NCBI GenBank assembly: GCA_963814875.1
Contig: CAWFFJ010000019.1
Span: forward strand, 67,482-131,481
DNA length: 64,000 nucleotides
Source: an uncultured Acidobacteriota bacterium
GTDB lineage: Bacteria; Acidobacteriota; Thermoanaerobaculia; Thermoanaerobaculales; Sulfomarinibacteraceae
Reading direction: 5' to 3'
Notes under the pieces: generated by a model
Seen by the model: only the letters and a program-made list of their open reading frames with translations
The model's database searches: none
What the model was told of the DNA's origin: nothing
Made by a program: the position numbers and the translations under genes
Part shown: piece after piece, positions 10,943 to 58,797 of the stretch
Layout: each line of letters begins with the position of its first letter
Position numbering within the stretch: position 1 is the stretch's first letter

Positions 10943-11949
10943 GGCCGCCCCGCGGCGAGCCGCGTGAGCAGCCGGCCGATAGCCTCCGGCTCGAGCTCGA
11001 GCAGCGCAGCCTCACGCTCCAGTGCGGCCCGCGGCATGCCGAAGACCGCACAGCTGTGTCGGTCCTGGGCCACGGTGAGCACGCCGGCTCGCCGCAGCTC
11101 CAGCATGCCTGTCACCCCGTCGTCGCCCATCCCGGTCAGGAGCACGGCCGCGACGTTGCCGGCCCCCAGCTCGAGGAACGACGAGAAGAGGAGATTGGCC
11201 GACGGTCGATGACCCCGGACCGGCGGCGTCAACGTGTCGTGGCGCAGCCTACCGTTCCGATCGATCACGAGGTGCGCTCCGGGCCGAGCCAGCCGAACCC
11301 GTGCCGAGGAGAGCGTCTCGCCGTCCTTGGCGACGCGGACATCGAGCCCGGTCTCGCGCGCCAGCCACTCTGCGAGCCCGGCCTCGAAGCCCGCAGCGAT
11401 GTGTTGGACGACCGCTACCGCGAGGGAAGTCCCCTTGAGCGCAGCGAGCATCGCGCGCAGCGCGACCGGACCGCCGGTGGAGGCGCCCACCGCGACGAAG
11501 CGTAGCCCGGCGGTCGCCGGCAGGCCCGACGTCTTCGGCCTCACGGCATCGCTGTCGGCGTCGGAGCGGGCGATCTGACGAACGACCTCTGCCAGGGACC
11601 GCCCGAGCTCCTGCCACTCGTCCGGCGTTTCCGGCTTGGCGAACACACCCAGTGCACCTCGGGTCAGGGTCTCGAATGCCAGGCGGGCGAAACGTCTCCG
11701 CCGCGGCGCGAGCACCAGGATGGGAGTCGGCCGTCTCCGAGTGATGGCCTCGGCGACAGCGACACCCCCGTCGGCGAGATCGGCGTCGAGAACCACCACG
11801 TCTGGCCGCAGCCTGGCGACCGCCCCCGCAGCCTCGGCAGGATCGCCGACGTCGCCCACCACGTCGACGCCCTCACCGGCGATCAGACGTCGCAGCAGGC
11901 TGCGGACCGTCGGCGACGCGCTGACCACGACAGCCCGGACCTCGCTCAT
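10939..11949 (-). CDS. cheB: protein-glutamate methylesterase CheB (receiver domain appears degenerate)
   Basis: The esterase triad contexts are present: AVGASTGGP, VVQHIAAGF and LTGMGDDG. The N-terminal receiver keeps LDADL and FAKP but has VVVSASP where the acidic DD pair normally sits. There is a 4-nt overlap with cheA. Confidence 0.9.
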   Translation of the reverse strand: MSEVRAVVVSASPTVRSLLRRLIAGEGVDVVGDVGDPAEAAGAVARLRPDVVVLDADLADGGVAVAEAITRRRPTPILVLAPRRRRFARLAFETLTRGALGVFAKPETPDEWQELGRSLAEVVRQIARSDADSDAVRPKTSGLPATAGLRFVAVGASTGGPVALRAMLAALKGTSLAVAVVQHIAAGFEAGLAEWLARETGLDVRVAKDGETLSSARVRLARPGAHLVIDRNGRLRHDTLTPPVRGHRPSANLLFSSFLELGAGNVAAVLLTGMGDDGVTGMLELRRAGVLTVAQDRHSCAVFGMPRAALEREAALLELEPEAIGRLLTRLAAGRP

Positions 11950-13937
11950 CGTGCCCCCAACCGGGCAACAACCGCGAGCAGCTCACGGGCCTCGAGGCCC
12001 TGCTTCGCCAGGTAGGCATCGGCACCTGCTGCGAGGCCCGCGCGGTGGTCCTCGGGGCGATTCCGGGTCGACACCACCACAACCGGCAGTTGGGCCAGCG
12101 CCGGGTTTGCACGGAGTGCTCGCGTGAGCTCGAGCCCGTTCATGTCGGGCATCTCGATGTCGGTGACTACACAGTCGAAGCCGCCGTCCTCGAGTGCACG
12201 CAGCGCTTCCTCCGCACTCCCGAACGAAGTCACCTCGAAGCCGCCGTCTTCGAGCACCCGGCGCAGCATCTCGCGGGTCACGCGCGAGTCATCCACCAAG
12301 AGCACTCGCACGGGTCCGGGCGCCTGCTGCGCCGCGACAACCTCGGAGCGCACGCCGGTACGGCTCGCGAGATCGTGGACCGAAACCACCGGCACCGGTC
12401 TCCCGGAAGCGAGCAGCGCCATGTCCGTAAAACAGGCGGGCGCTCCCAGGCCAGGCGGTAGCGGTCTCAGCACGACCTCCTCCTCGCCGACGACGGCGTC
12501 GACCGCGAGCGCTATCCGGACGCCGCCGAAGGAGACCTCCACGTGCACCTCGTCCCGCCCGCGCAACCCGGCCAAGAGCTCCCCCAGCGAGCGCACAGCT
12601 GGGGCCCCGCGGGCGGGCTCCGCAGGCGTCGCCGATCCCTTCGCGACGTGCCGGTAGGCGACAACGCCGGCCGCAGGTAGACCAACCTGAAACCCCGCCG
12701 CTGACACCACGAGGAGGCGGTCGGCGTGGCGGGTCACAGGCAACAGAAGGGTCACCTGGGTGCCGCGACCGGGCTCGGAGGCAAGCAGGACATCTCCTCC
12801 AACGTTGCGCACGGCCTCGGCGACGGCATCGAGGCCGACTCCACGCCCGGACACCGCCCCGGCGGCCTCTCGGGTCGTGAAGCCGGGGCGAAAGAGCAGC
12901 CGCAACGCGTCGTCGGGTCCGAGCGCGGCAAGCTCTTCGTCGCTCACCAGCCCGCGCGCCCGCGCCGCGTCGACGACGAGCTTCGGATCGATCCCGCGGC
13001 CGTCATCCTCGATCTCGAGCCGGACCCGCTCGCCTGCGCCGCCGGCAGTGAGACGCAGCCTGCCGGTAGCCGGCTTTCCGGCCGCGGTCCTTTCGTCGGC
13101 GGGCTCGATACCGTGATCGACCGCGTTCCGGACAAGGTGGAGCACCATTTCCTCGATCGCGGTGAGGACCCGCCGGTCGAGCTGTCCGCTGTCGGCGCTG
13201 ATCACGACCTCCACCTCTTTTCCCAGGGAGTGCGCGAGGTCGCGCGCGTGGCGTCCGACGGCAATGAGGAAAGGCTTGAGCGGCTGCAACTGGAGCCCGA
13301 TCAGAGCGTTGAGCTGACGGTCGACAAGCCGGCTCAGGCGACGCTCGCCGCCCTCGAGCTCAAACGCCGCCCGGCGCAGCAACGAGGCGAGCGTGGCGAG
13401 TACTTGCTCGGGGGACTCATCCGCCATGCCCCTCTCTGCAAGCCGTGAGAGCTCGAAGATCCGGTCCTTCACCCCACCCGCTGCCACCGCCAGGACCCGC
13501 ATCCTGGACGCCCGGTCGGCGAGCCGGTCGAGTACCGCCGCGCCCACCCGCATCTGCGTCTGATCCGATGGGGTACGGGATCCCTTGCGTAGCGCGGGCG
13601 GCGCTGCGTCGGTCGTTGCACTGCCGAGCTCGGGGACGGCGGCCTGCCGCCGTTGCGCCAAAAGCCCGGCCAGACCGTCGATCACTGCGACCAGGGAGAC
13701 GACCACCTCCGAGCCGCCCTTCTCGACCAGCGTCTCCGCATCGTGGCAGAGATCTGACATCTCGACCAGGCCCATCATCCGGCTCGCCCCTTTGAGGGCA
13801 TGAAGCTCGCGCTTAACGACCGCAGCCGCCTCGTCGTCCTCCGTGACCCGCGACGCGAGCTCGGCCAGGTGCTCGAGCCGGTCCTCCGCCTCGTCGAGAA
13901 AGAGCGGAATCAGATCGTCGAAGTCGCCTGCCTGCAT
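11946..13937 (-). CDS. cheA: hybrid CheA histidine kinase with C-terminal receiver domain
   Basis: An HPt motif (ELHALKGASRMMGL) is followed by HATPase motifs (HLVRNAVDHGIE, EDDGRGID, GRGVGLDAV) and a CheW-like P5 domain. A canonical REC follows (VLLVDDSRV...VVTDIEMPDMNG...VVVSTR...YLAKQ). Confidence 0.92.
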   Translation of the reverse strand: MQAGDFDDLIPLFLDEAEDRLEHLAELASRVTEDDEAAAVVKRELHALKGASRMMGLVEMSDLCHDAETLVEKGGSEVVVSLVAVIDGLAGLLAQRRQAAVPELGSATTDAAPPALRKGSRTPSDQTQMRVGAAVLDRLADRASRMRVLAVAAGGVKDRIFELSRLAERGMADESPEQVLATLASLLRRAAFELEGGERRLSRLVDRQLNALIGLQLQPLKPFLIAVGRHARDLAHSLGKEVEVVISADSGQLDRRVLTAIEEMVLHLVRNAVDHGIEPADERTAAGKPATGRLRLTAGGAGERVRLEIEDDGRGIDPKLVVDAARARGLVSDEELAALGPDDALRLLFRPGFTTREAAGAVSGRGVGLDAVAEAVRNVGGDVLLASEPGRGTQVTLLLPVTRHADRLLVVSAAGFQVGLPAAGVVAYRHVAKGSATPAEPARGAPAVRSLGELLAGLRGRDEVHVEVSFGGVRIALAVDAVVGEEEVVLRPLPPGLGAPACFTDMALLASGRPVPVVSVHDLASRTGVRSEVVAAQQAPGPVRVLLVDDSRVTREMLRRVLEDGGFEVTSFGSAEEALRALEDGGFDCVVTDIEMPDMNGLELTRALRANPALAQLPVVVVSTRNRPEDHRAGLAAGADAYLAKQGLEARELLAVVARLGAR

Positions 13938-18808: not shown

Positions 18809-20911
18809 ATGCGACTCTCGTTACCCATTCGACTGCTCGCCGCCGTGGCGTGCACGATTCTGATCATCACCATGGGCCTGCCCGCTCTCGCGGCCGAGCC
18901 GACAGCGACCCCGACGGCGACACCGACCCCGACGCCGCCGCATGTCGGGAGCGGCGAGCTGCTGGTGACGGCACCCCGGCTCGAGGTCTCCCTTGCCGAG
19001 AACCCCGCAGCGACCACCGTGATCGGCGAGGAGACCCTGTCGGTGCTGCCGCGCGCCATCGCCGCCGAGGAGGCGCTGGCTCTCGTCCCCGGTGTCAAGG
19101 TCGACAATCAGGCCAACGGCGAGCGCGTCCACATGTCGATCCGCGGTCAGGGCATCCTGACCGAACGTGGCATCCGCGGCATCAAGATCCTGCTCGACGG
19201 GCTGCCGCTCAACGACCCGACTGGGTTCGCTCCCGATCTCTTCGACGTCGACTGGGCCACGGTCGACCGCATCGAGGTGCTGCGCGGACCCGCCTCGGCT
19301 CTGTACGGCGGAGGCGCCAACGGTGGCATCATTGCGATCCAGACCCGTGACGGCGTCGACGCCCGGGTCGGCGGCGAGGGCCTCGCGACCTTCGGCTCGA
19401 ACGGGTTCTGGAAGGTCCTCGGCGAGGCCAGCGGCAGCGGCGACGGCAACGACTGGCGGGTAAGCGCCTCGCGCACCGCGGGAGATGGGTACCGCGTCCA
19501 CACCGCCTTCGCCGCAACCAATCTGTACGGCAAGTTCCACGTCCTCTCGAGCGACGCCTTCTCGCTGACGGTGATCACCGCCGGTACCAAGTTCTTCAAC
19601 GAGAACGCTGAAGGCCTCAACATCGACCAGGTCCACGAGGACCCGACCCAACCCAACCCCGATGCCGAGGTCTTCAACGAGTACCAGCGCACCCAGCGCG
19701 GCACCCTCGGCCTCGTCGGCCACGTCGCCCTCACTGCCGACCAGGAGCTGACCTTCGCGGCCTGGTATCGCCAGACCCTGTGGCGCGAGTCGGTCCCATC
19801 GTCGGTCCAGCACCGCACCTACGGCACGCCGGGCGCGTACCTCCAGTACACGCTTCACACACCGATCGGCGGGCTCGACAACCACTTCAGCCTCGGCACC
19901 GACCTCGACTGGCAGACGATCGACGAGACCAAGCGCCCGAACCTCGGCGGGGCGGTCGAAGGCTCTGAGATACTCTCCGACCAGCTCATTCACCAGAAGG
20001 GCACCGCCTGCTACCTGCTCGACCGGCTCGAGCTCGCCGAGGGCTGGAGCCTGACCTTCGGCGCCCGCCACGACAGCATCGACAACCAGCTCCAAGACCA
20101 GCTGGTCACCGACGGCGTCGACCTGTCCGGCAGCGCCGACTTCAGCAAAACGACGGCGAGGGTCGGCGTGGCGTGGAGCGTGAGGGAGGACCTCGGCGTC
20201 TACGCCAGCTGGGGTCAGGGCTTCCTGCCGCCGGCGACCGAGGAGCTGGCCAACAACCCCGTGCAGCAGGGCGGCTTCAACCAGGGGCTCGTGCCGGCGA
20301 CCTCGGACGGCTTCGAGATCGGGGTCCGCGGGGCCGCGTCCCACACACTGTGGTACGACGTCACGGCCTTCCAGCTCTCGACGGACAACGACTTCGGCCG
20401 CTACCGGACGCCCGATCGGCCGCTCGAGACCTTCTACCGCAATGCCGGCTCGAGCAGCCGCTGGGGTCTGGAGAGCTCCCTCGTGTGGATGCCCTTCGAC
20501 GCCCTGGTCGTCCGCCTCTCCTACACCTACTCAGACTTCACCTACGACCGCGTCGAGGTCGGGACCGACGTCTACCACGACACCAAGCTGCCCAACTCTC
20601 CCGAGCACATGACGGCCCTTGACCTCGCCTACACGCTGCTGCCCAGGTTGACCCTCGGCACCACCGTCAGCACCATGACCCGTGCCTACATCGACGCCAC
20701 CAACGCGACCTGGATCGGCGGCTACACCCTGGTCGATGCACGGCTTGGTTGGGGTTTTGCGATGTCAAGCTGCACCGGCGAGCTGCTGGTGTCGGCACGC
20801 AACCTGACCGACAAGGCGTACATTGCGTTTACCGAACCCGACCCCGACGGCAACTCCTACCAACCTGGCACCAGCCGAGAGCTCTTCGCCGGCGTTTCGC
20901 TGCATTTCTAG
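18809..20911 (+). CDS. TonB-dependent outer-membrane receptor
   Basis: A signal peptide is followed by a plug domain (LLVTAPRLE..., VPGVKVDNQANGERVHMSIRGQG, RIEVLRGPASALYGGGANGGII). A long beta-barrel ends in the typical aromatic terminus ...ELFAGVSLHF. An SD GGAGG lies upstream. Confidence 0.92.
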   Translation: MRLSLPIRLLAAVACTILIITMGLPALAAEPTATPTATPTPTPPHVGSGELLVTAPRLEVSLAENPAATTVIGEETLSVLPRAIAAEEALALVPGVKVDNQANGERVHMSIRGQGILTERGIRGIKILLDGLPLNDPTGFAPDLFDVDWATVDRIEVLRGPASALYGGGANGGIIAIQTRDGVDARVGGEGLATFGSNGFWKVLGEASGSGDGNDWRVSASRTAGDGYRVHTAFAATNLYGKFHVLSSDAFSLTVITAGTKFFNENAEGLNIDQVHEDPTQPNPDAEVFNEYQRTQRGTLGLVGHVALTADQELTFAAWYRQTLWRESVPSSVQHRTYGTPGAYLQYTLHTPIGGLDNHFSLGTDLDWQTIDETKRPNLGGAVEGSEILSDQLIHQKGTACYLLDRLELAEGWSLTFGARHDSIDNQLQDQLVTDGVDLSGSADFSKTTARVGVAWSVREDLGVYASWGQGFLPPATEELANNPVQQGGFNQGLVPATSDGFEIGVRGAASHTLWYDVTAFQLSTDNDFGRYRTPDRPLETFYRNAGSSSRWGLESSLVWMPFDALVVRLSYTYSDFTYDRVEVGTDVYHDTKLPNSPEHMTALDLAYTLLPRLTLGTTVSTMTRAYIDATNATWIGGYTLVDARLGWGFAMSSCTGELLVSARNLTDKAYIAFTEPDPDGNSYQPGTSRELFAGVSLHF

Positions 20912-20931
20912 ACCACGGTGTTTCCCTCCAG

Positions 20932-20959
20932 ACCGGGGCGACCAAACGGTCGCCCCGGT
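20932..20959 (+). terminator. GC-rich hairpin after the TonB-dependent receptor
   Basis: accggggcgacc-aaac-ggtcgccccggt is a perfect 12-bp stem with a 4-nt loop, 21 nt after the stop. No U-tract follows. Confidence 0.5.
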
Positions 20960-21084
20960 CGACTCGGGAAGGTCCCTGCGGTCACACATCCTGATTCAGA
21001 ATCTCACCTTTATTGCCAGCCCTCTGTAACTGTCTCGACTTGCGGCGTACCATCACTTTGTACTGATACGGCTCAGCCGAGCCG

Positions 21085-23991
21085 ATGGAGGCCAGCATGC
21101 TACTCGGTCGCCGCACCCTGACCCACGTCCTGCGCCGTGTTCCGGTCGTGCTCATGGCCACCCTTGCCGCCGCCTCACCCGCGTCCGCCGGCTGGCGCGT
21201 CATTGCCTGGAACGACCTCGGCATGCATTGCATGGACTCGAGCTACGCGGTCTTCTCCATTCTGCCGCCGTACAACAACCTCCACGCCCAGATCGTCGAC
21301 GCGTCGGGGCGGTTGGTGACGTCTCCAGGGACCCTCAGCGTGACCTGGGAGGCGGTCGCGGACGCGAGCGGCTCGCGCAACACGACCTCTGTCGGCAAGA
21401 CCGACTTCTGGAGCTTCGTCGCCGCCCTTTACGGAGCCGACCTCGCCCCTGATCATGGGCTCGCCGGCTCGGCCATGCCCGGCACCGGCAACACACCGCA
21501 GCCGATGTCGTTCGATGTGGGTGCGCACCAGTTCGTCGCATCTGGCATCCCGATCACCGCGTACGACGACAGTGGGCGGAAAAACGCCTATCCGATGGTG
21601 CGGGTCGTGGTCCGCGACGGATCCGGGGCCATCCTGGCATCGACCGATGTCGTGCTGCCGATCTCGGATGAGATGGACTGCCGGGCGTGCCACGGCTCCG
21701 GAAGCTCAGCGGCGGCCCAGCCTGCTGCCGGGTGGGTGACCGACCCCGATCCCGACCGCGACTATCGGCTCAACATCCTTCGTCTGCACGACGATCTCGA
21801 GGGATGGCGGCCCCGATTCGCCTCCGCCCTCACCGAGGCCGGCTACTCCGCCGACGGGCTGTATGCGACTGTCACCGCGCAGGGAACGCCGGTGCTGTGC
21901 GCCCGATGTCATGGCTCCAACGCCCTGCCCGGCACCGGGCTCGCCGACATCCCACCCCTCACCCACTCCGTGCACGGCAAGCACGCGCAGGTCGAGGATC
22001 CGGTCAATGGGCTGACCCTCGACGCCAGCAGCAACCGCTCGGCGTGCTACCGCTGCCACCCTGGCAGCGAGACGCGGTGTCTGCGCGGTGCGATGGGCTC
22101 CGCGGTCGCCGCCGACGGCAGCCTCGCAATCCAGTGCCAGAGCTGTCACGGCTCGATGAGCGCGGTGGGCGGCAACCGCGAAGGCTGGCTCGACGAGCCC
22201 GGGTGCGGAGGCTGCCACACGGGCACTGCCACCGCCAACAGCGGCCAGATCCGCTACACCTCGGCGCTCCTTGCCGACGGCTCTCGACGACAGCCCGCTG
22301 ATTCCACCTTCGCAACCAACCCCGACACGCCGAGCGCCGGCTTCTCGCTCTACCGGTTTTCCGACGGCCACGGCGGGCTCGCCTGCGAGGCATGCCACGG
22401 CTCCACCCATGCCGAGTACCCCAGCCTCGACGCCAACGACAACGCCCAGAGCCTCGCCGTCCAGGGCCATGTCGGATCCATCGGCGACTGCACCGCCTGC
22501 CACGCCTCGTCGCCGTCGACCACCTCCGGCGGTCCGCACGGCATGCACCCGGTCGGACAGGACTGGGTGAGCAGGCACGGCGACGCCGCCGAGCACTCGA
22601 GCTCGGCATGCCAGGTGTGCCACGGGGCGGACTCGCGCGGCACCGTGCTGTCTCGGGCCCTCGGACCGCGCAGCTTGTCGACGAAGTGGGGAAGCCGGAC
22701 CTTCTTCCGCGGCGCCACCATCGGCTGCTACACCTGCCACAATGGGCCATCGAGCGAGAGCGGCAACCCCAACCACCCTCCTACCGTGGCCAGTGCCTCG
22801 ATCTCGACCACTCACGACACGCCCGTGACCGTAACGCTCTCCGCCACCGACGCCGATGGCGACTCGCTCACGGTGCGGATCGTGACCCAGCCCCGGCACG
22901 GCACCGTCGCGCTGAGCGGCCGGTCCGCGACCTACCTCCCAGAGGCTGGGTTCGGCGGAACCGACAGCTTCACCTTCGCGGCCTGGGACGGCGCCTCGGA
23001 CTCCAACCTCGCAACCGTCTCCGTTTCCGTGTCGGCCGCGGCGCTCGCCGTCAGCGCGGCGGCGAGCCCGTCGAGCGGCCAGACGCCGCTCGAGGTACAC
23101 TTCAGCGCCACGGTCTCCGGGGGCACCGAGCCATACAGCTACGACTGGGACTTCGGAGACGGCAGCGCTCACGCCGTCACCTCGAACCCGACCCACACCT
23201 ACACCGCCGACGGGACCTTCCCGGTGAGCGTGTCAGTGCGGGACGCGGTCGACATCACAGCGAGCGACAGCCACCTGGCGGTCACGGTCGGCTCCACCGC
23301 GGTGTGGCGCTACCTGGTGCCCGCCGCGGCCCACAACACAGGGGTCGGCGGAACCCTGTGGCAGACCGACCTGGTGGCCGTGGTGCCGGGGTCGCAGTCG
23401 GCGAACCTCGAAATGGAGTTCCGCTTCCCGGGTGGGCAGCGGACCGCCGTCGAGGTCCTTGCCGCAGGCTCGACCGTGGTGTGGACCAACGCCGCCGAGA
23501 GCCTGTTCGGGCTCGCCCCCTCCGAGCCCGCCGCCGGCGTCATCGAGGTCACCTCCGACGCGCCCGTCGTGCTCAGCGCGCGGACCTTCAACTCGACCGC
23601 GACCGGGACCTTCGGGCAATCCATGCCGGTCCTCGACGAGGCCGCCGCGCTGCACGCCACCGAAGAGGGCGTGCTGCCGCACATCGTCGCCAACGCGAAG
23701 TTCCGGTCGAATCTCGGGCTGGTCAACCTTGGCAACGCCCCCTGCACGGCCACCGTCCGGCTGTTCGGTGGCTCGGGCACGCCGCTCGGACAGTCGATCT
23801 CCGAGACCGTGTCGGCTCGGGGTTGGACGCAGCTCAACAACATCGGCGATCTCGTGGGCGCGGGCCAGATCGAGATCGCCTACGCGACGGTGAGCGTCGA
23901 CACCCCTGGCGGTGCCATGTGGGCCTACGTCTCGCTGATCGACCAGGCCACCGGCGATCCCACCACGATCCCAGTCGTCCGCCGGCCCTGA
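21085..23991 (+). CDS. secreted nonaheme c-type cytochrome fused to cadherin-like Ig, PKD and an unassigned C-terminal domain
   Basis: It has a signal peptide (VPVVLMATLAAASPASAGW). There are nine CxxCH motifs: CRACH, CARCH, CYRCH, CQSCH, CGGCH, CEACH, CTACH, CQVCH and CYTCH. A cadherin-like repeat (VTVTLSATDADGDSLTVRIVTQPRHGTV...DSFTFAAWDG) and a PKD signature (PLEVHFSATVSGG...YDWDFGDGS...HTYTADGTFPVSVSV) follow. The last 232 aa are unassigned. Confidence 0.88.
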   Translation: MEASMLLGRRTLTHVLRRVPVVLMATLAAASPASAGWRVIAWNDLGMHCMDSSYAVFSILPPYNNLHAQIVDASGRLVTSPGTLSVTWEAVADASGSRNTTSVGKTDFWSFVAALYGADLAPDHGLAGSAMPGTGNTPQPMSFDVGAHQFVASGIPITAYDDSGRKNAYPMVRVVVRDGSGAILASTDVVLPISDEMDCRACHGSGSSAAAQPAAGWVTDPDPDRDYRLNILRLHDDLEGWRPRFASALTEAGYSADGLYATVTAQGTPVLCARCHGSNALPGTGLADIPPLTHSVHGKHAQVEDPVNGLTLDASSNRSACYRCHPGSETRCLRGAMGSAVAADGSLAIQCQSCHGSMSAVGGNREGWLDEPGCGGCHTGTATANSGQIRYTSALLADGSRRQPADSTFATNPDTPSAGFSLYRFSDGHGGLACEACHGSTHAEYPSLDANDNAQSLAVQGHVGSIGDCTACHASSPSTTSGGPHGMHPVGQDWVSRHGDAAEHSSSACQVCHGADSRGTVLSRALGPRSLSTKWGSRTFFRGATIGCYTCHNGPSSESGNPNHPPTVASASISTTHDTPVTVTLSATDADGDSLTVRIVTQPRHGTVALSGRSATYLPEAGFGGTDSFTFAAWDGASDSNLATVSVSVSAAALAVSAAASPSSGQTPLEVHFSATVSGGTEPYSYDWDFGDGSAHAVTSNPTHTYTADGTFPVSVSVRDAVDITASDSHLAVTVGSTAVWRYLVPAAAHNTGVGGTLWQTDLVAVVPGSQSANLEMEFRFPGGQRTAVEVLAAGSTVVWTNAAESLFGLAPSEPAAGVIEVTSDAPVVLSARTFNSTATGTFGQSMPVLDEAAALHATEEGVLPHIVANAKFRSNLGLVNLGNAPCTATVRLFGGSGTPLGQSISETVSARGWTQLNNIGDLVGAGQIEIAYATVSVDTPGGAMWAYVSLIDQATGDPTTIPVVRRP

Positions 23992-24012
23992 GCCCGGCTC
24001 TTTCGAGTCGAT

Positions 24013-24042
24013 CCCGCCCCGTCGGCCTGACGACGGGGCGGG
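24013..24042 (+). terminator. GC-rich hairpin after the multiheme cytochrome gene
   Basis: cccgccccgtcg-gcctga-cgacggggcggg is a perfect 12-bp stem, 21 nt after the stop. Confidence 0.5.
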
Positions 24043-24071
24043 GGTAGACTGCGAGCGTGGAGGACACCGCC

Positions 24072-25040
24072 ATGGCTCGACACCTCTGGCCGTCGTTCCT
24101 GCTCACTCTTGCCCTGATCCCGGCCGCGGCCTTCGCCGCGCCGCCGGACCCATCCACCTTCTCGATCGTCGCCGCTGACCCGGACGCCGGTGAGGTCGGC
24201 GTTGCTGTTGCGAGCCGTTTCTTTGCGGTCGGTACCGTCGTTCCCCACGCCCGCGCCGGCGCCGGAGCGGTCGCGACCCAGGCCTACGCCAACACGAGCT
24301 ACGGCCCGCGCGGGCTCGACCTGCTCGCCATGGGTCTGAACCCGACCGAGGTCGTCGAGATCCTCACCCGCAGCGACGACGGCGCCCAGCGCCGCCAGGT
24401 CGGTGTGGTCGACGCCTCCGGCCGCTCGGCGACGTTCACCGGACCGGGCTGCAATGCATGGGCCGGCGGACGGTCGGGCCCGGGTTATGCAGTGCAGGGC
24501 AACATCCTGGTCGGCGCACCGGTGGTCGCTGCGATGGAGACGTCGTTCCTGTCCAGCGCCGGAAAGCCCCTCGCCGAGCGGCTGCTCGCCGCCCTCTCGG
24601 CCGGTGACGCCGCCGGAGGCGACGCCCGAGGACACCAGTCAGCGGCGCTCATCGTGGCGCGCGCCGGGGGAGGCTACGGCGGCTTCTCCGACCGCGCGAT
24701 CGACATCCGGGTCGACGACAGCCAGGACCCCTTCGGCGAGCTGCGCCGCCTGCTCGGGATCGCGATGGTTAACGACGACTGGAACCGCGGCTGGACCGCA
24801 TTCACCGAGAAGCGCTTTCCGGACGCCCGCCGATGGCAGGAGCGCGCCGCCGAGCGCGCCGGCGCTCAGCCCGAGGTTCTGCCGGAGGTCCTCTACGACC
24901 TCGCGGTGATCCGTCTCGCCGATGGCGACCGCCCGGGTGCCGAGGCTGCACTTGCGAAGGCCGTGTCCCTCAACCCCAAGCTCGCCGAGCAGGCCAAGGT
25001 CGACGACGACCTCGCCGGCCTCCACCCCGAGGGAAAGTAG
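24072..25040 (+). CDS. secreted DUF1028-family (Ntn-hydrolase-fold) protein with C-terminal TPR-like extension
   Basis: ATG 24072 is preceded by GGAGGA. After the signal peptide the protein reads TFSIVAADPDAGEVGVAVASRFFAVGTVVPHARAGAGAVATQAYAN, the characteristic DUF1028 N-terminus. The C-terminal ~90 aa are helical and TPR-like. Confidence 0.8.
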   Translation: MARHLWPSFLLTLALIPAAAFAAPPDPSTFSIVAADPDAGEVGVAVASRFFAVGTVVPHARAGAGAVATQAYANTSYGPRGLDLLAMGLNPTEVVEILTRSDDGAQRRQVGVVDASGRSATFTGPGCNAWAGGRSGPGYAVQGNILVGAPVVAAMETSFLSSAGKPLAERLLAALSAGDAAGGDARGHQSAALIVARAGGGYGGFSDRAIDIRVDDSQDPFGELRRLLGIAMVNDDWNRGWTAFTEKRFPDARRWQERAAERAGAQPEVLPEVLYDLAVIRLADGDRPGAEAALAKAVSLNPKLAEQAKVDDDLAGLHPEGK

Positions 25041-25050
25041 CGAGAGAACA

Positions 25051-25179
25051 AACCACAGAGGCACAGAGACACAGAGGAAGACAGAACTCACGCCTGGTCG
25101 GGAGCGGGCCCTGTGGCCCCGCTCCCGACCAGGCGTGAGATTCTCCGTGCCTCTCTGTGACCTCTGTGTTTCTGTGGTC
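25051..25179. repeat. CACAGAG-type inverted-repeat element with perfect 22-bp core hairpin (copy 1)
   Basis: Left arm: aaccacagaggcacagagacacagaggaagacagaa. Core: ctcacgcctggtcgggagcggg / cccgctcccgaccaggcgtgag, a 22-bp perfect stem at 25087-25108 / 25118-25139. Right arm: attctccgtgcctctctgtgacctctgtgtttctgtggtc. It fills the gap between two convergent genes. Confidence 0.75.
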
Positions 25180-53029: not shown

Positions 53030-53995
53030 CTAACGGATCCCGACGGCCCGACGCACCCGGTCCATCAGCGGTGCGACGGTTTCCCGAGCTCGCTCGGCGC
53101 CCCGTGTGAGGACCCGGTCGACCTCACTCGGATCCGCGGAAAGCTCGGTGAAGCGTTGACGGGCGTCGCCGAAGGTGGCCAGGAAGTACTCGAAGAGCTT
53201 CTTCTTCATCTCGCCATAGCCTGTGCCGCCCTCACGGAAGGCACGCTCAACCCACGCGCGCTCGGGCTCGGGAGCGAACAGCTTGAGGAGCTGGTAGAGG
53301 GCGTTGTCCTGGGTCGGTTTGGGCTCCTCGACCGGTGTTGAGTCGGTGACGATCGACATGATCCGCTTCCGGGTCGCCTTCTCGGGGCCGAAGAGGTCGA
53401 TGGTGTTGCCGTAGGACTTCGACATCTTGCGCCCGTCGACACCCGGCACCACCGCAACCTCGTCAAGGATCAGCGGGTCCGGGAGGGTGAAGATCTCCTG
53501 TCCGTAGGTCGTGTGAAAGTTGGTCGCGATATCGCGGGTGACCTCGAGGTGCTGCTTCTGGTCCTTGCCGACCGGGACCAGGTCGGCATCGACGATCAGG
53601 ATGTCCGCCGCCATCAGCACGGGATACGCGAACAGGCCGTGGCTCGGCACCACTCCCTGGGCGACCTTGTCCTTGAACGAGTGGCAGCGCTGAAGCAGAC
53701 CCATCGAAGTTGCCGTGGACAGGTACCAGGCGAGCTCGGAGACCTCGGGCACGTCGGACTGCCGGTAGACCACAGAGCGTTTCGGGTCGAGGCCAAACGC
53801 AAGGAACCCGGTGGCGAGGTCCCGCACCAGGCTCCGCATCCGGTCCGCGTCATGGACAGTGGTCAGGGCGTGCAGGTCGGCGAGAAAGTAGAAGCACTGG
53901 TGTTCGGCCTGCAGGGCGACAAACTGCCGGATCGCGCCGAAGTAGTTGCCAATGTGGAGAATCCCCGAAGGCTGAACGCCGGACAGGACGCGCAT
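53030..53995 (-). CDS. trpS: tryptophan--tRNA ligase
   Basis: MRVLSGVQPSGILHIGNYFGAI (HIGH-type motif) and KMSKS (GRKMSKSYGN). 321 aa. SD GAGGAGG lies upstream. Confidence 0.95.
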   Translation of the reverse strand: MRVLSGVQPSGILHIGNYFGAIRQFVALQAEHQCFYFLADLHALTTVHDADRMRSLVRDLATGFLAFGLDPKRSVVYRQSDVPEVSELAWYLSTATSMGLLQRCHSFKDKVAQGVVPSHGLFAYPVLMAADILIVDADLVPVGKDQKQHLEVTRDIATNFHTTYGQEIFTLPDPLILDEVAVVPGVDGRKMSKSYGNTIDLFGPEKATRKRIMSIVTDSTPVEEPKPTQDNALYQLLKLFAPEPERAWVERAFREGGTGYGEMKKKLFEYFLATFGDARQRFTELSADPSEVDRVLTRGAERARETVAPLMDRVRRAVGIR

Positions 53996-54048
53996 CGCAC
54001 CCTCCTCGAAGGCGGGATCTTACACCATGCGGAAAGGCGGACGGAGGA

Positions 54049-54292
54049 AACCACAGAGGCACGGAGGCACAGAGAAACACAGAGCCGACGCCCACCCAGA
54101 AGACAAGGAGACCTGCTCCGGTTTGACGACGAATGGTGAGACGATGACTCGGAAGTGATTGACGTCACCATGAGATACGGAGAGAACCCGATGACGTGGT
54201 GAACGCCCCCACGTCTGGCGACTCACCTTCTCACGTCTTGCGGCGCGGGCTGAGGGCAGCGCCTGCACTGTCTCTCTGGGTCTCTGTGGTGA
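54049..54292. repeat. CACAGAG-type inverted-repeat element (copy 3, long, ~185-bp lower-GC interior)
   Basis: Left arm: aaccacagaggcacggaggcacagagaaacacagag (54049-54084). Right arm: ctgtctctctgggtctctgtggtg (54268-54292). The interior contains the palindrome tgacgtca and no convincing ORF. Confidence 0.55.
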
Positions 54293-54368
54293 AGACCACC
54301 CGCCGTACATGGATCGGGCCGACACCTTTGGTGCCGGCCCGCGGGACCTGCTCGAATGACTGGGCAGC

Positions 54369-54605
54369 TCAGTCTTCGCCGTCGTCCCCGATCGCCTCCA
54401 CCGGGCAGGACTCCAAGGCCTCCTGGCACTGGGCCTCTTCCTCGTCCGTCTCCGGTTGCTTGTAGACGTACGAGAAGCCCTCGTCCTCGTTGGCCATGAA
54501 GTTGTTGGGGGCAGTCGTCCGGCACACGTCGCAGTCAATACAGCTCGTGTCGACGTAGAACTTGCCGGAGACGTTGGTTTCAACCTTGTCGGTGGGGTCC
54601 GCCAT
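54369..54605 (-). CDS. small ferredoxin (single Fe-S cluster type)
   Basis: ORF 54369..54662 trimmed to ATG 54605, preceded by AGGAG. The sequence is MADPTDKVETNVSGKFYVDTSCIDCDVCRTTAPNNF...ALESCPVEAI, giving the CxxCxxC...CP pattern. The C-terminus is acidic. Confidence 0.8.
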   Translation of the reverse strand: MADPTDKVETNVSGKFYVDTSCIDCDVCRTTAPNNFMANEDEGFSYVYKQPETDEEEAQCQEALESCPVEAIGDDGED

Positions 54606-54698
54606 CGGATCGATCTCCTTTCGCCCGGTCGCCCGGGGTCGCGTCGGGGGTGATGCTAACACACGCTAGAAGCCTGTCAATTCTCACGAGCCGAGCCA

Positions 54699-55808
54699 TT
54701 ATCGAGCAGGAATCTCAAGTGGTCGCGGGATCGAATCGAGCCGGATTGTCTGCTGCTGGACGCCTGTTGCGGCTGCGCTGGTGGTGCGAGAGGACCACAC
54801 ACACTCCACGTCATAGGGCTTCGAGAACGATGGCAGGACAGTCGTCGGGTCGTTCGAGCGGTTGTCCACCAGGGAACCGTAGGCGACCATCGCCGGGACG
54901 ACCTTGGTCCCGGTCGTGGTGTAGCTGGCGATGGACACCTTGAGCGTGATATCGCTCACTCCGGTGAGCCCGAATCGGGTGGACAGCACCTGATTGTACT
55001 GCTCGTGCTGGAGCGGTGCCACGTAAAAGGAGAAGGACAGCGGCTTGCCATCCGCATCCTCGAGCTGGACCCCGTCCGGACCGTACGGATCGATCTGGAT
55101 CAGCAGAGAGGTCTGGGGATCGGAGGTGTTGAAGACACCGATATTGAAACGGAAGTTGTTATCCTCGGCGGCACCGGTAATGAGCTGGTACGAAAGGTCG
55201 GTGAACCCGGCATCGGCGACGTTGTACCAGGGCACCCCCGGGATGGTCTGACCGTAGGTGGCCGCCTTCTGGATGAACTGGCCTGTGTTGTCCGGGTCCG
55301 GCACCCACACCGTGGTGTCGTTGTACGTCCGCGACTGGACCACCACATTGCGATACTGGCGGTCACCACCCGCGTCGAGCGTACCCGCCTGGTACGCGAA
55401 GACCACCAACCCGCCGAGGTTGGCGCGCGAGCCGAACTCGTCGGACCAGTACTGGCCGACGATGTCGCGCAAGGTCACCGAACCGCCGGGCGGAATGTCG
55501 GCGAGGCTCGCATCGACGTGTCCCCAACCCTCGGAGTCCCGTCCGCCGAGACCAGAGGTCCGGTCGTCGAGAATCGTCGAGTTGTCGCCGGCGCCCGACG
55601 GCATGAAGTAGATCGCGACATCGACGGCATCCGTCGTCTCGACGTTGGCGATCGTCAGGTCAGTGCGCCACACGCTGCCCTCGACGCCGCTGTTATGCGC
55701 CGCCACCGGGACATAGACAAGATCCGAAGCCATGAAGGACGCCCATGCCGGCGCACCGGCGAGGAGCAGTACGGCCAACAGGCCGAGCCGCCCGCAGAAT
55801 CGAGCCAT
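54699..55808 (-). CDS. secreted hypothetical protein sharing the unassigned C-terminal domain of the nonaheme cytochrome
   Basis: ORF 54699..55880 trimmed to ATG 55808, preceded by GGAGG. It has a signal peptide (MARFCGRLGLLAVLLLAGAPAWA). The motifs VPVAAHNSGVEGSVWRTDL, RTYND...ATYGQTIPGVP, FRFNIGVFN and AYGSLVDNRSNDPTTVLP parallel those in 21085..23991. Confidence 0.65.
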   Translation of the reverse strand: MARFCGRLGLLAVLLLAGAPAWASFMASDLVYVPVAAHNSGVEGSVWRTDLTIANVETTDAVDVAIYFMPSGAGDNSTILDDRTSGLGGRDSEGWGHVDASLADIPPGGSVTLRDIVGQYWSDEFGSRANLGGLVVFAYQAGTLDAGGDRQYRNVVVQSRTYNDTTVWVPDPDNTGQFIQKAATYGQTIPGVPWYNVADAGFTDLSYQLITGAAEDNNFRFNIGVFNTSDPQTSLLIQIDPYGPDGVQLEDADGKPLSFSFYVAPLQHEQYNQVLSTRFGLTGVSDITLKVSIASYTTTGTKVVPAMVAYGSLVDNRSNDPTTVLPSFSKPYDVECVWSSRTTSAAATGVQQQTIRLDSIPRPLEIPAR

Positions 55809-55876
55809 GAGAACCTCCGCGATCCGCGGCAGGGTCACCGCGATAGACGCTGTCAACGGGAGGGACGCGCGGCCCC

Positions 55877-57295
55877 TCACCCGGTCATGTTGCCATCGCC
55901 GGCCGGGCCCGGCAAGACGATACGTGCTTCGAAGCCACCGGTCGCCAGATTCTCCAGCTCGAGCTCACCCCCGTGGGCGGTCACGATCCGGTCCGCGATC
56001 GCCAGCCCTAGCCCGGTCCCGCCGCGGCGGTTGGTGACGAAGGCTCTCCGCACCTGCCCGAGCTGGTCCTCCGGGATGCCGTTGCCGCGATCGCGAACCA
56101 AGAGCACGACCTGGTCGTTCTCACACGCTGCGGCCAGCTCGACGACGCGGCGCTCGGCGGGCTCCAACAGCGCGACCGCCTGGATCGAGTTCAGGGCGAG
56201 GTTGAGCAGCACCTGGCGGAGCTGGGCCGCGTCACCTTGGATCGCGATATCGGGAACATCCGGGGCGAGGCGAAGATGGGTAGCCATCGCCCGCGCTTCG
56301 CCGCGCAGAAACTCCGCAACCTCACGCAGAAACGGAACCAGTCGCACGGGCTCGAGATTGGGCTCGGTTGGCCGGGCATAGGTGAGGAAGTCGCTCACCA
56401 GTCGGGCCAGGCGGCTGACCTCCTGGCGCGTCGACGCCAGCGAGCCTGAGCTTTCGGACGGTCCGGCAGCCAAATCCTCTTCCAGCAGCTCGAGATTGAG
56501 GTTGATCGAGTTCAGGGGGTTCCGGATCTCATGGGCCAGGTTGGCCGCGAGGCTTCCGAGGGCTGCGAGCTCTTCGGCTTCGTGGCGCGCACCCTCGAGG
56601 CGGCGGTTGCGCTGGATCAGCAGCCAGACACATGCGAAGGCCACCAGCAGGGTCGACAAGGTCAGCACCGCAACGGTCACCGTCTGTCGGAGCAGCTCCG
56701 AGCGCAGCTGCTGCACGCGCGCGGCGAGCTTGACCTTGCTGACGTTGAGAACAACCTCGCCCACCTCGCCCGCCGGAACGGCGATCTGATAGCTGTGCTC
56801 GGTCTGGCGCACGTCCGCATCGGAGAGATCCCCGCGGAGCTCGAGCTCCGGGACCGTGCCGGGCGGAATGTCCTCCGTGCTCTGCAGGAACGACGTGAAG
56901 ACCACGTTGCCGTTGGCATCGGTCACTTCAACCGACTCGAGCACCTTCTTCTGTGCGAGGCCACCCAGCGTCCGGACCAGGGCCTCCTGGCGCTTGGACA
57001 TGACCTGGAGTAGATCGGTGCCGCCGCCACTCTTGAGCTGCTCCGCGAACCGCTCCGCGTCCTCGCGCCCGGTGAGCAGAACGTCCTCGAGGTAGCGCCT
57101 CGACAGCGACGAGGCGATCAGGTGGCCAAACAGGAAGATGATGCCGAGCACGAGCACGGCGAACGCCGACGCCGCCAGGGCGAGCTGGCGGGACAACGGG
57201 CTCGGGCCGGACTTCCTTCGCCGCGTGACGCCCTCGCGCCGCATCGGTGCGTCGGTGCGCTGATCGAGTCGCAACGCGGCCGGGGCCTCAGACAT
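55877..57295 (-). CDS. sensor histidine kinase (two TM helices, extracytoplasmic loop domain, HisKA plus HATPase)
   Basis: H-box LGSLAANLAHEIRNPLNSI. N/G boxes LLNLALNSIQA, VRDRGNGIPEDQL and GGTGLGLAIADRIV. The start is uncertain (ATG 57295 or GTG 57346). No response regulator is adjacent. Confidence 0.85.
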   Translation of the reverse strand: MSEAPAALRLDQRTDAPMRREGVTRRRKSGPSPLSRQLALAASAFAVLVLGIIFLFGHLIASSLSRRYLEDVLLTGREDAERFAEQLKSGGGTDLLQVMSKRQEALVRTLGGLAQKKVLESVEVTDANGNVVFTSFLQSTEDIPPGTVPELELRGDLSDADVRQTEHSYQIAVPAGEVGEVVLNVSKVKLAARVQQLRSELLRQTVTVAVLTLSTLLVAFACVWLLIQRNRRLEGARHEAEELAALGSLAANLAHEIRNPLNSINLNLELLEEDLAAGPSESSGSLASTRQEVSRLARLVSDFLTYARPTEPNLEPVRLVPFLREVAEFLRGEARAMATHLRLAPDVPDIAIQGDAAQLRQVLLNLALNSIQAVALLEPAERRVVELAAACENDQVVLLVRDRGNGIPEDQLGQVRRAFVTNRRGGTGLGLAIADRIVTAHGGELELENLATGGFEARIVLPGPAGDGNMTG

Positions 57296-57645
57296 CGGCT
57301 CGCCGATCACTGCGCTCGCGCTGCTCCCCACCTCTCCACCAGCCACGCAAGTGCGAACCCGCAGGACCCGTCCCGTCGATGTGGCGACAGCGCGAGAATG
57401 CCAAAACGGCAGCCATAGACTGCCCGAAGAGGCTCGAGGCGGTCACAGCCTCAGTCCAAGCGGGCTCGCCTTCACGTCTCACCATCTCTCTACCGTGGGC
57501 ACCGTCCTGCCAGCGATCGCGGGCCCACTCGCAACTCGGCGCCCACAGCGTGTGCTCGCTGACGACCCGGCCCCGCGTTGTTGGGCTTCCCTGTGGTAAC
57601 AGGCATCTCGGCTCCCTCGCGACCTCACGCGGTGTGACATGCAGG

Positions 57646-58797
57646 CTAGATGCCACACCCGGTTCGGAGGTCTTTCGCCCGGTCGGTACGCTCCCAGGTA
57701 AAGTCCGGGTCGTTGCGTCCGAAGTGACCGTAGGCTGCGGTCTTGCGGTAGATTGGGCGGAGCAGGTCGAGGGCCTGGATGATCGCGCGCGGCGTGAGCG
57801 GGAAGACCTCACGGACCACGCGGGTGATCCGCTCGTCCGGAACCTGTCCGGTGCCGAAGGTGTCGACCATGATGGAGACCGGGTCCGCGACACCGATCGC
57901 ATAGGCCAGTTGGACCTCGGCCCGGCTCGCGAGACCGGCAGCGACGATGTTCTTTGCGACGTAACGGGCCATGTACGACGCGGAGCGGTCGACCTTGCTG
58001 GGGTCCTTTCCGGAAAAGGCCCCCCCGCCGTGCGAGCCGACGCCGCCGTACGTGTCGACGATGATCTTGCGTCCGGTCAGACCGCAGTCGCCTTGAGGCC
58101 CGCCAATGACGAAGCGCCCGGTCGGGTTGATGAGAACCTTGGTGTCGTCGTCCATCATCGCCAACGGAAGGACCGGAGCAATGACCTTCTCGCGCACCTC
58201 CATCCGCAGCTCGCGGATCGACACCGAGTCCGAGTGCTGACACGAGACCACCACCGCCTCGATGCGGTGCGGTGCGCCGTTCCGGTACTCGACCGACACC
58301 TGGCTCTTGCCGTCCGGCCGAAGCCACTCAATCTCGTCCGTCCTCCGGGCCTCGGCAAGCCGCATCGCGAGCTTGTGTGCGAGCATGATCGGCATCGGCA
58401 TCAGCTCGGGCGTCTCGTCGCAGGCGAATCCGAACATCAGCCCTTGGTCGCCGGCGCCGCCGGTGTCGACCCCCTGCGCGATGTCCGGCGACTGCGGATC
58501 GATCGACGAAATCACTGCACAGGTCTCGTAGTCGAAGCCGAACTTCGCCCTGGTGTAGCCGATGTCCCGGATGGTCTCGCGTACGAGTCGAGGAAAATCG
58601 ACGTAGACGGTGGTTGAGATCTCGCCCGCGATAAAGGCGAGCCCGGTGGTCACCAATGTTTCGCAGGCGACTCGGCCGTCGGGATCTTCGCTGAGCACCG
58701 CATCCAGGATCGCGTCCGAGATCTGGTCCGCGATCTTGTCGGGGTGCCCTTCCGTGACCGACTCCGAAGAGAAAACATGCATACCGTTAGGAGCCAT
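57646..58797 (-). CDS. metK: S-adenosylmethionine synthetase
   Basis: [35 protein letters not shown] and [16 protein letters not shown]. 383 aa. SD GGAGG lies upstream. Confidence 0.95.

Follow-up and report, generated by a model that had tools for sequence, protein, structure and literature searches.

Two genes in a 64-kb stretch of DNA (64,000 nucleotides, hereafter the window) from contig CAWFFJ010000019.1 of an uncultured Acidobacteriota bacterium encode homologous copies of one secreted module; one copy forms the C-terminus of a nonaheme cytochrome, and the other forms the body of a stand-alone protein, here called X, that is encoded directly downstream of a sensor histidine kinase (Table 1). 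The module is an internal duplication of ~225 residues that consists of two homologous beta-sandwich repeats, and it belongs to a very large and promiscuous family, common in environmental bacteria, that carries no name. On structural and evolutionary grounds, it can with good probability be assigned to the ASRAH superfamily, as a divergent dyad with fused repeats that lies outside the Pfam families ASRT and DUF5719 by curated thresholds. The overall reading that we favor, with confidence just short of even, is that the module binds ligands and that X serves as an extracytoplasmic co-sensor of the kinase.

A preliminary description of this DNA had proposed that the cytochrome C-terminus and X share an ordered set of four motifs, and all four pairs were found, in collinear order. 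When X was compared by BLASTP with the C-terminal 239 aa of the cytochrome, the E value was 5e-10, with 27% identity over 309 columns that included long gaps. The Smith-Waterman score of X against the cytochrome tail (139) was far outside the distribution obtained with shuffled sequences (36.6 ± 5.8, maximum 62, n = 1000; z = 17.7, Gumbel p ~3e-11), a significant outcome for a comparison that had been named as a possible refutation of the shared motifs; similarity resulting from composition was thus rejected. A hidden Markov model (HMM) of the family matched X with an E value of 8.9e-36 (covering aa 29–78 and 103–326) and the cytochrome copy more strongly (Table 1). No third copy was found in the window when its six-frame translation was scanned with this HMM, in agreement with tblastn, and hidden further copies were therefore rejected. 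As had been described, X carries extra insertions, and alignments place three conserved ones relative to the compact cytochrome copy (GLGGRE..G.G.VD..LADIPPGG, FAYEAGTLD.DG, and TTIWVPDPDNEG.FIE). Both proteins have signal peptides, consistent with the extracytoplasmic location proposed earlier. The cytochrome is a secreted protein with nine CxxCH motifs, in which an MtrC/MtrF-like domain is followed by a Big_9/cadherin-like domain, a PKD domain (all named from Pfam matches), and the module; its last ~230 residues are without a match in Pfam or NCBIfam.

The duplication within the module became evident when 287 module instances were cut at the GQxxP motif and the N-terminal halves were aligned with the C-terminal halves by HHalign (96% probability, E 4.4e-9). 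This alignment pairs VPaaAH..G..GT.WRTDl.l.N...v.l in the first half with L.qL..n..fRTNiG.vN...V.V.L in the second, and the first and third of the four motifs described earlier are therefore one motif present in two repeats. The halves of the cytochrome copy are encoded at ~23293–23643 and ~23644–23988. In X, the first repeat contains the motifs VPVAAH..G..GSVWRTDLTIAN and SRTYN...ATYGQ as well as lineage-specific insertions, and the second contains FRFNIGVFN and AYGSLVDNRSNDPTTV. The signature strand of the repeats reads [W/F]-R-[T/S]-[D/N]-h-x-h-h-N. Across the family, several polar residues (H, R, N, Q, D) show almost no variation; in the module alignment (A4) this applies to N31 and N145, and among X orthologues (alignment A3) N55 is nearly invariant and N227 invariant. 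R220 and N222 of X likewise belong to its conserved residues.

AlphaFold2 predicted both copies with high confidence (predicted local distance difference test score, pLDDT, of 89.9 and predicted TM-score, pTM, of 0.86 for X; pLDDT 94.7 and pTM 0.89 for the cytochrome copy). Both models are all-beta and contain two runs of strands with one pattern, in line with the beta-rich character that the preliminary description had attributed to the domain. No entry of the Protein Data Bank (PDB) matched the whole module in Foldseek searches with the two models. The only match with a low deviation in both searches was TM1070 from Thermotoga (1nc7), with a probability of 1.00 and a root-mean-square deviation of 3.6 Å over the full 117-residue target (target-normalized TM-score 0.72 for X and 0.68 for the cytochrome copy), and all remaining matches in both searches had deviations of >9 Å. 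Structure prediction and fold search, both suggested earlier as checks, thus point to a confidently predicted all-beta fold for which TM1070 is the only well-superposed match.

TM1070 is the structural representative of ASRT, the family of the Anabaena sensory rhodopsin transducer, and was used to define the ASRAH superfamily. Members of this superfamily are predicted ligand binders, with sugars or other small molecules as the ligands, and dyads or tetrads are the form in which its secreted families are found (De Souza, Iyer and Aravind 2009, PMC2739507); even in ASRT, a ligand in the cleft along strand 2 has the status of a prediction (PMC2739507). The module resembles this superfamily in several respects. 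Its predicted fold is superposable on TM1070 (1NC7), its strand-2 signature ends in a nearly invariant Asn before a tight turn, and it is itself a dyad, of which two copies per protein are common, giving four sandwiches. Like ASRT and TM1070, each repeat is a beta-sandwich of ~110–120 residues, and the ASRT signature SHEshChhN and the module signature [W/F]R[T/S][D/N]hxhhN are in register. However, ASRT proteins are small, cytoplasmic, single-domain tetramers, whereas the module is secreted and has two fused repeats, and the putative ligand-contacting His and Cys of ASRT are replaced by Arg and Gly/Thr, respectively.

Several sequence comparisons pointed, though weakly, to the same family. Pfam ASRT (PF07100) matched the second half of a module in one family member (P0084) with 24.3 bits (E 3.2e-5), compared to a cut-off of 25; X and the cytochrome had no ASRT match at E ≤ 0.1. 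With a half-module as query, the top PDB sequence match in phmmer was the ASRT structure 2ii7, in which RSNIGILNAG of the module was placed over HETVCILNAG, i.e., the SHEshChhN signature strand. HHalign against an ASRT profile built from 11 annotated "sensory rhodopsin transducer" genes located on plasmids, a shallow alignment (Neff 2.5), gave 72% probability for the N-terminal half (E 3.4e-5, 85 columns) and 34% for the C-terminal half (E 4.2e-4), with a shared register. In this register the nearly invariant Arg of the module occupies the position of the putative ligand-contacting His of ASRT, and the last residue of the signature strand, an Asn conserved in both repeats, is aligned to the ASRT Asn in both phmmer and HHalign. 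The plasmid ASRT genes (loci L074–L084) adjoin genes encoding a glycoside hydrolase of family 15, a D-arabinono-1,4-lactone oxidase, a GMC oxidoreductase, and an MFS sugar porter; this proximity to sugar and sugar-acid genes fits the sugar sensing by ASRT predicted in 2009.

Some of these results weigh against our assignment. The relation to ASRT is built on a predicted fold and on sequence scores below threshold: no module member exceeded the curated Pfam cut-off for ASRT, and PDB sequence searches with X and with the family profiles A2 and A4 found nothing. The conserved strand-1 Trp of ASRAH proteins is also not found at the equivalent position, where the first and second halves have VPaaAH and L.qL, respectively; the conserved Trp of the family opens the signature strand instead. 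The sub-threshold scores and the missing Trp, together with the HHalign values against ASRT and the frequent recurrence of beta-sandwiches, would be expected if the resemblance to ASRT were convergent and the module belonged to a separate, unrelated family of beta-sandwiches that binds ligands in its own way or has a function of its own. We consider this explanation very unlikely, however, since four independent approaches (the Pfam HMM, phmmer against the PDB, HHalign, and Foldseek) all choose ASRT or TM1070 with the signature strand co-registered, and since the dyad arrangement is that described for secreted ASRAH families.

Among named families, neither X nor the cytochrome tail had a match in Pfam or NCBIfam, and a clean mapping to a named family was rejected because curated thresholds were not reached; the earlier view of the domain as unassigned therefore stands. 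When 33 module sequences (the cytochrome copy and 32 diverse instances) were scanned against Pfam at E ≤ 0.1, the only recurrent sub-threshold families were DUF5719 (10 of the 33, best E 1.1e-5) and ASRT (3 of the 33). DUF5719 (PF18986, function unknown), the most frequent sub-threshold match among module instances, scored 20.4 bits against P0084, compared to a cut-off of 26.2, and matched 4 of 48 whole proteins scanned (best E 1.2e-7); X and the cytochrome copy showed no DUF5719 match at E ≤ 0.1. This family, which the literature searched does not mention, may correspond to the lipoprotein family that was described in 2009 as the actinobacterial branch of ASRAH.

The module family is widespread. 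A 20-sequence profile (A2) searched against 1.84 billion representative proteins (clusters at 50% identity) matched 11,243 protein clusters at E ≤ 1e-3, of which 4,108 remained at E ≤ 1e-30, with many partner domains; in answer to the question of copy number and partners raised by the preliminary description, these clusters stand beside the two copies in the window. Partners are found in large secreted or surface proteins and include PKD, LVIVD and other beta-propellers, Sortilin/BNR, BACON, FGE-sulfatase, subtilase, beta-lactamase, Kelch, and NHL domains. No multihaem cytochrome was present among the best 150 family members, and the cytochrome fusion is therefore one of many architectures and an atypical one. 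Names given by NCBI and JGI follow the partner domains ("PKD domain-containing protein", "PKD repeat protein") or read "hypothetical protein". Named members that could be traced belong to Thermoanaerobaculaceae, Thermoanaerobaculia, Holophagae, other Acidobacteria, and, in one case, a metagenome-assembled genome labelled Nitrospirae; a search with profile A4 returned 33 unnamed proteins and added nothing on taxonomy or partners.

With respect to its architecture, the module resembles carbohydrate-binding modules (CBMs), BACON domains, and the C-terminal domains of the type IX secretion system (T9SS) in being a promiscuous, often C-terminal all-beta module that follows PKD or Ig spacers. This likeness bears on an alternative in which the module is a C-terminal tag for sorting, secretion, or cell-surface retention, with a T9SS-like role in directing or tethering cargo, and X is a copy without cargo that occupies or regulates the same machinery. 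Consistent with a tag, the last module copy ends ≤15 residues from the C-terminus in 109 of the best 150 matches, and the partner domains are very diverse and share no common catalytic theme, a pattern typical of sorting domains. However, the module is larger than CBMs and T9SS C-terminal domains (~225 aa), internally duplicated, and usually tandem, as two copies were present in 149 of the best 150 matches, an excess that is partly explained by the higher ranking of tandem proteins when scores are summed. The C-terminal position is also not obligatory, as the first copy starts ≤60 residues from the N-terminus in 38 of the best 150, some proteins (P0094, P0097, and P0098) have further domains after the module, and X has a conserved tail behind it. 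The module matched no CBM or sorting-domain model in Pfam or NCBIfam; both the model match and the strictly C-terminal single copy by which a sorting domain would be recognized are lacking. As a tag would also leave the tight coupling of a stand-alone protein to a kinase unexplained, we regard this alternative as quite unlikely and retain a binding module as the preferred interpretation.

The evidence for a possible role of X in signaling comes from its gene neighborhood. The kinase gene lies upstream of X on the same strand, as described before; the spacing, previously given as 69 nt, is 68 nt to the ATG of X. The encoded protein consists of a first transmembrane helix, a ~140-aa periplasmic domain (~aa 79–218), a second transmembrane helix, and HisKA and HATPase_c domains, without HAMP (Pfam and sequence reading). 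Its periplasmic domain had no Pfam match at E ≤ 10 and no PDB sequence match, and its conservation comes close to that of the catalytic domain (0.63 vs. 0.68). The only receiver (CheY-like) domain in the window (~11967–12311, within a 663-aa open reading frame at 11946–13937, minus strand) is >43 kb away, and the kinase is therefore an orphan within the window, in agreement with the earlier remark that no partner regulator is nearby.

We found 83 full-length X orthologues with 41–95% identity, the nearest (P0001) at 95%. A search of one genome per GTDB species with the orthologue alignment (A3) gave 64 loci, and with five from other assemblies 69 loci were compared; the 64 are labelled nearly all as Thermoanaerobaculia, Thermoanaerobaculales, Ca. 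Sulfomarinibacteraceae, Holophagae, or Acidobacteriota, and the few other taxon labels are probably binning errors. A kinase homologue was found directly upstream of X and on the same strand in all 69 loci, even though X had diverged to 32–50% identity. The distance from kinase stop to X start was short (median 32 nt in the 69-locus set, mostly <70 nt), and several pairs overlapped by a few nucleotides. The conserved order is metK–kinase–X–ferredoxin–trpS, with metK before the kinase in every locus that reaches far enough upstream and trpS after the ferredoxin in most; aroDE also flanks the block in relatives, and the flanks beyond these five genes vary among genomes. The small ferredoxin noted earlier behind X is a Fer4_13 protein, and 66 of the 69 loci have a match to it behind X, with 60–96% identity. 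A sigma-70-like site on the minus strand between the X stop and the ferredoxin start (54680–54653; TTGACA-16-TAGCAT with an upstream TG, 10 of 12 matches) suggests that the ferredoxin gene could be transcribed on its own; because the ferredoxin is far more conserved than X and this promoter-like site separates the two, a functional link between them is doubtful. Rfam had no match at 53800–57800.

This neighborhood could also be explained without any signaling link, X being a structural or enzymatic envelope protein that shares the kinase transcript in a housekeeping setting. Such a reading would account for the presence of metK and trpS at the ends of the block and of aroDE in relatives, as well as for a ferredoxin without obvious connection to an exported protein; other module proteins adjoin secreted enzymes rather than kinases, and the nearly invariant polar residues could equally mark an active site. 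We nevertheless judge it unlikely, as it does not explain why the kinase and X remain adjacent in every locus despite the divergence of X, why the gaps are mostly so short and some pairs overlap start on stop, why the pair is kept where the flanks beyond the five-gene block vary, or why the periplasmic domain of the kinase is conserved with no other assigned input.

The anatomy of X supports export. A Sec-type signal peptide, MARFCGRLGLLAVLLLAGAPAWA followed by SF, was read by eye from the sequence, and the hydrophobic N-terminus and the A-x-A site followed by F are conserved among X orthologues (alignment A3). With an alternative GTG start at 55880, X would begin in a 4-nt overlap with the kinase stop codon (GTGA; 55877–55880), an arrangement that called genes show in two related loci (L003 and L005); this start was rejected for X, since the alignment of orthologues begins at the ATG (55808) and 24 additional residues before the signal peptide are unlikely. 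Behind the second repeat, X orthologues have a tail that is absent from the remaining module family and that consists of a PSF..PYDV(D/E)C.W segment with a single, nearly invariant Cys, a variable linker, and a conserved terminal motif of the RPLxxPPR type. AlphaFold2 confidence in the tail is low at residues 340–358 (pLDDT <50), yet reaches 89 for the final nine residues, as if the terminal peptide docked back on the body of the protein in the predicted structure; this peptide might act as a plug within the molecule or serve in the recognition of a partner.

Based on these observations, we propose that the module is a divergent ASRAH-like dyad in which the signature strand would line a binding cleft for sugars or other small molecules, and that many secreted proteins have acquired it, in one copy or in tandem, as a promiscuous binding module. 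By analogy with ASRAH proteins, the ligand may be a glycan or another small or surface ligand held in the cleft of the [W/F]R.[D/N]....N strand; the ASRAH-like fold and the weak sequence signals agree with the ligand- or surface-binding role suggested in the preliminary description. On the nonaheme cytochrome, the module would most likely hold the protein on a glycan or other surface ligand. X, the insert-bearing, stand-alone version, would be exported via its Sec signal peptide and would share one transcript with the kinase; it may bind an extracytoplasmic ligand and inform the kinase via the conserved periplasmic domain of the latter, thus acting as an accessory co-sensor. We infer both the anchoring of the cytochrome and the contact between X and the kinase. 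A binding function of the module seems to us evenly balanced, and a co-sensor role of X is put forward tentatively, as a possibility held with clearly less than even confidence.

LuxP–LuxQ, TorT–TorS, and ChvE–VirA are known examples of periplasmic accessory proteins that act with histidine kinases, and the accessories LuxP, TorT, and ChvE have the periplasmic-binding-protein fold. X resembles them as an exported protein, with predicted co-transcription, encoded beside a kinase that has a periplasmic domain, and the proposed logic, by which the accessory would bind the ligand and the kinase would read the accessory, is the same for the X–kinase pair. In contrast to these accessories, X does not have a periplasmic-binding-protein fold but a predicted all-beta double sandwich, and no response regulator is encoded nearby. 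The lack of a response regulator near the kinase in the 64-kb window adds to the points that count against a co-sensor. Other stand-alone module proteins (P0094, P0249, and P0265) adjoin secreted enzymes and lack kinase neighbors, so that linkage to a kinase is specific to X. Part of the conserved adjacency could also be plain synteny, since the block lies between the housekeeping genes metK and trpS.

While the ASRAH superfamily is already known, the fused-dyad family, its size, and the class-wide pairing of kinase and X appear to be new; no description of them was found in the literature searched, with ASRAH (for which the 2009 paper was the only relevant one) and DUF5719 as subjects. Combining the above into one scenario, X may be a dedicated co-sensor of an orphan kinase found throughout Thermoanaerobaculia, and the family of ~11,000 clusters may represent a new class of glycan- or surface-binding domains that tether extracellular enzymes and multihaem cytochromes in Acidobacteriota; taken as a whole, this scenario is doubtful. 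If it is true, ASRT-like beta-sandwiches would partner membrane sensors in two settings, with a rhodopsin in Anabaena and with a histidine kinase here. With >11,000 clusters and no Pfam or NCBIfam model, a definition of the module would improve the annotation of large secreted proteins of Acidobacteriota, and the link to ASRT offers a testable predicted binding cleft around the strand with the conserved Arg and Asn. As an invariant pair, kinase and X may provide a compact genetic system for studying an all-beta accessory input to two-component sensing in a class that has received little study and is for the most part uncultured. The presence of the module on a secreted nonaheme cytochrome is also relevant to the question of how proteins of extracellular electron transfer could be held at the cell surface or on substrates.

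Table 1. Location of the module copies, the parts of protein X, and the genes of the kinase–X block in the window.
Feature	Position	Strand	Size or extent	Basis
X gene, stand-alone secreted module protein	54699–55808	minus	369 aa from ATG, plus stop codon	open reading frame list
X signal peptide	55737–55808	minus	aa 1–24; A-x-A site, cleavage between AWA and SF	read by eye
X repeat 1, beta-sandwich	55230–55724	minus	aa 29–193	family HMM, predicted strand pattern (AlphaFold2)
X repeat 2, beta-sandwich	54831–55229	minus	aa 194–326	HMM, predicted strands (AlphaFold2), half-vs-half HHalign
X-specific C-terminal tail	54702–54830	minus	residues 327–369	alignment A3, AlphaFold2
Sensor histidine kinase, directly upstream of X	55877–57346	minus		Pfam
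Ferredoxin, single-cluster Fer4_13	54369–54605	minus	78 aa from ATG	Pfam E 5.9e-21
metK, upstream flank of block	57646–58797	minus		Pfam, synteny
trpS, downstream flank of block	53030–53995	minus		Pfam, synteny
Nonaheme cytochrome	21085–23991	plus	968 aa	Pfam matches, CxxCH count
Compact module copy, cytochrome C-terminus	23293–23988	plus	cytochrome aa 741–966	family HMM E 2.1e-69

The surroundings of the cytochrome gene include a TonB-dependent receptor gene directly upstream (18809–20911) and, downstream, a gene encoding a secreted protein with DUF1028 and TPR (24057–25040); the region 18809–25040 could be an outer-membrane locus for electron transfer or uptake. A 45-nt CACAGAGG-rich element (AAACCACAGAGGCACAGAGACACAGAGG...) is present twice in the window with 84% identity, downstream of the DUF1028 gene near the cytochrome (25050–25094) and in the 373-nt gap between the ferredoxin gene and trpS (54048–54092). 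In one related locus (L003), the gap equivalent to that between ferredoxin and trpS carries two small genes of the 23S_rRNA_IVP family. The 45-nt element may be a short dispersed intergenic repeat.

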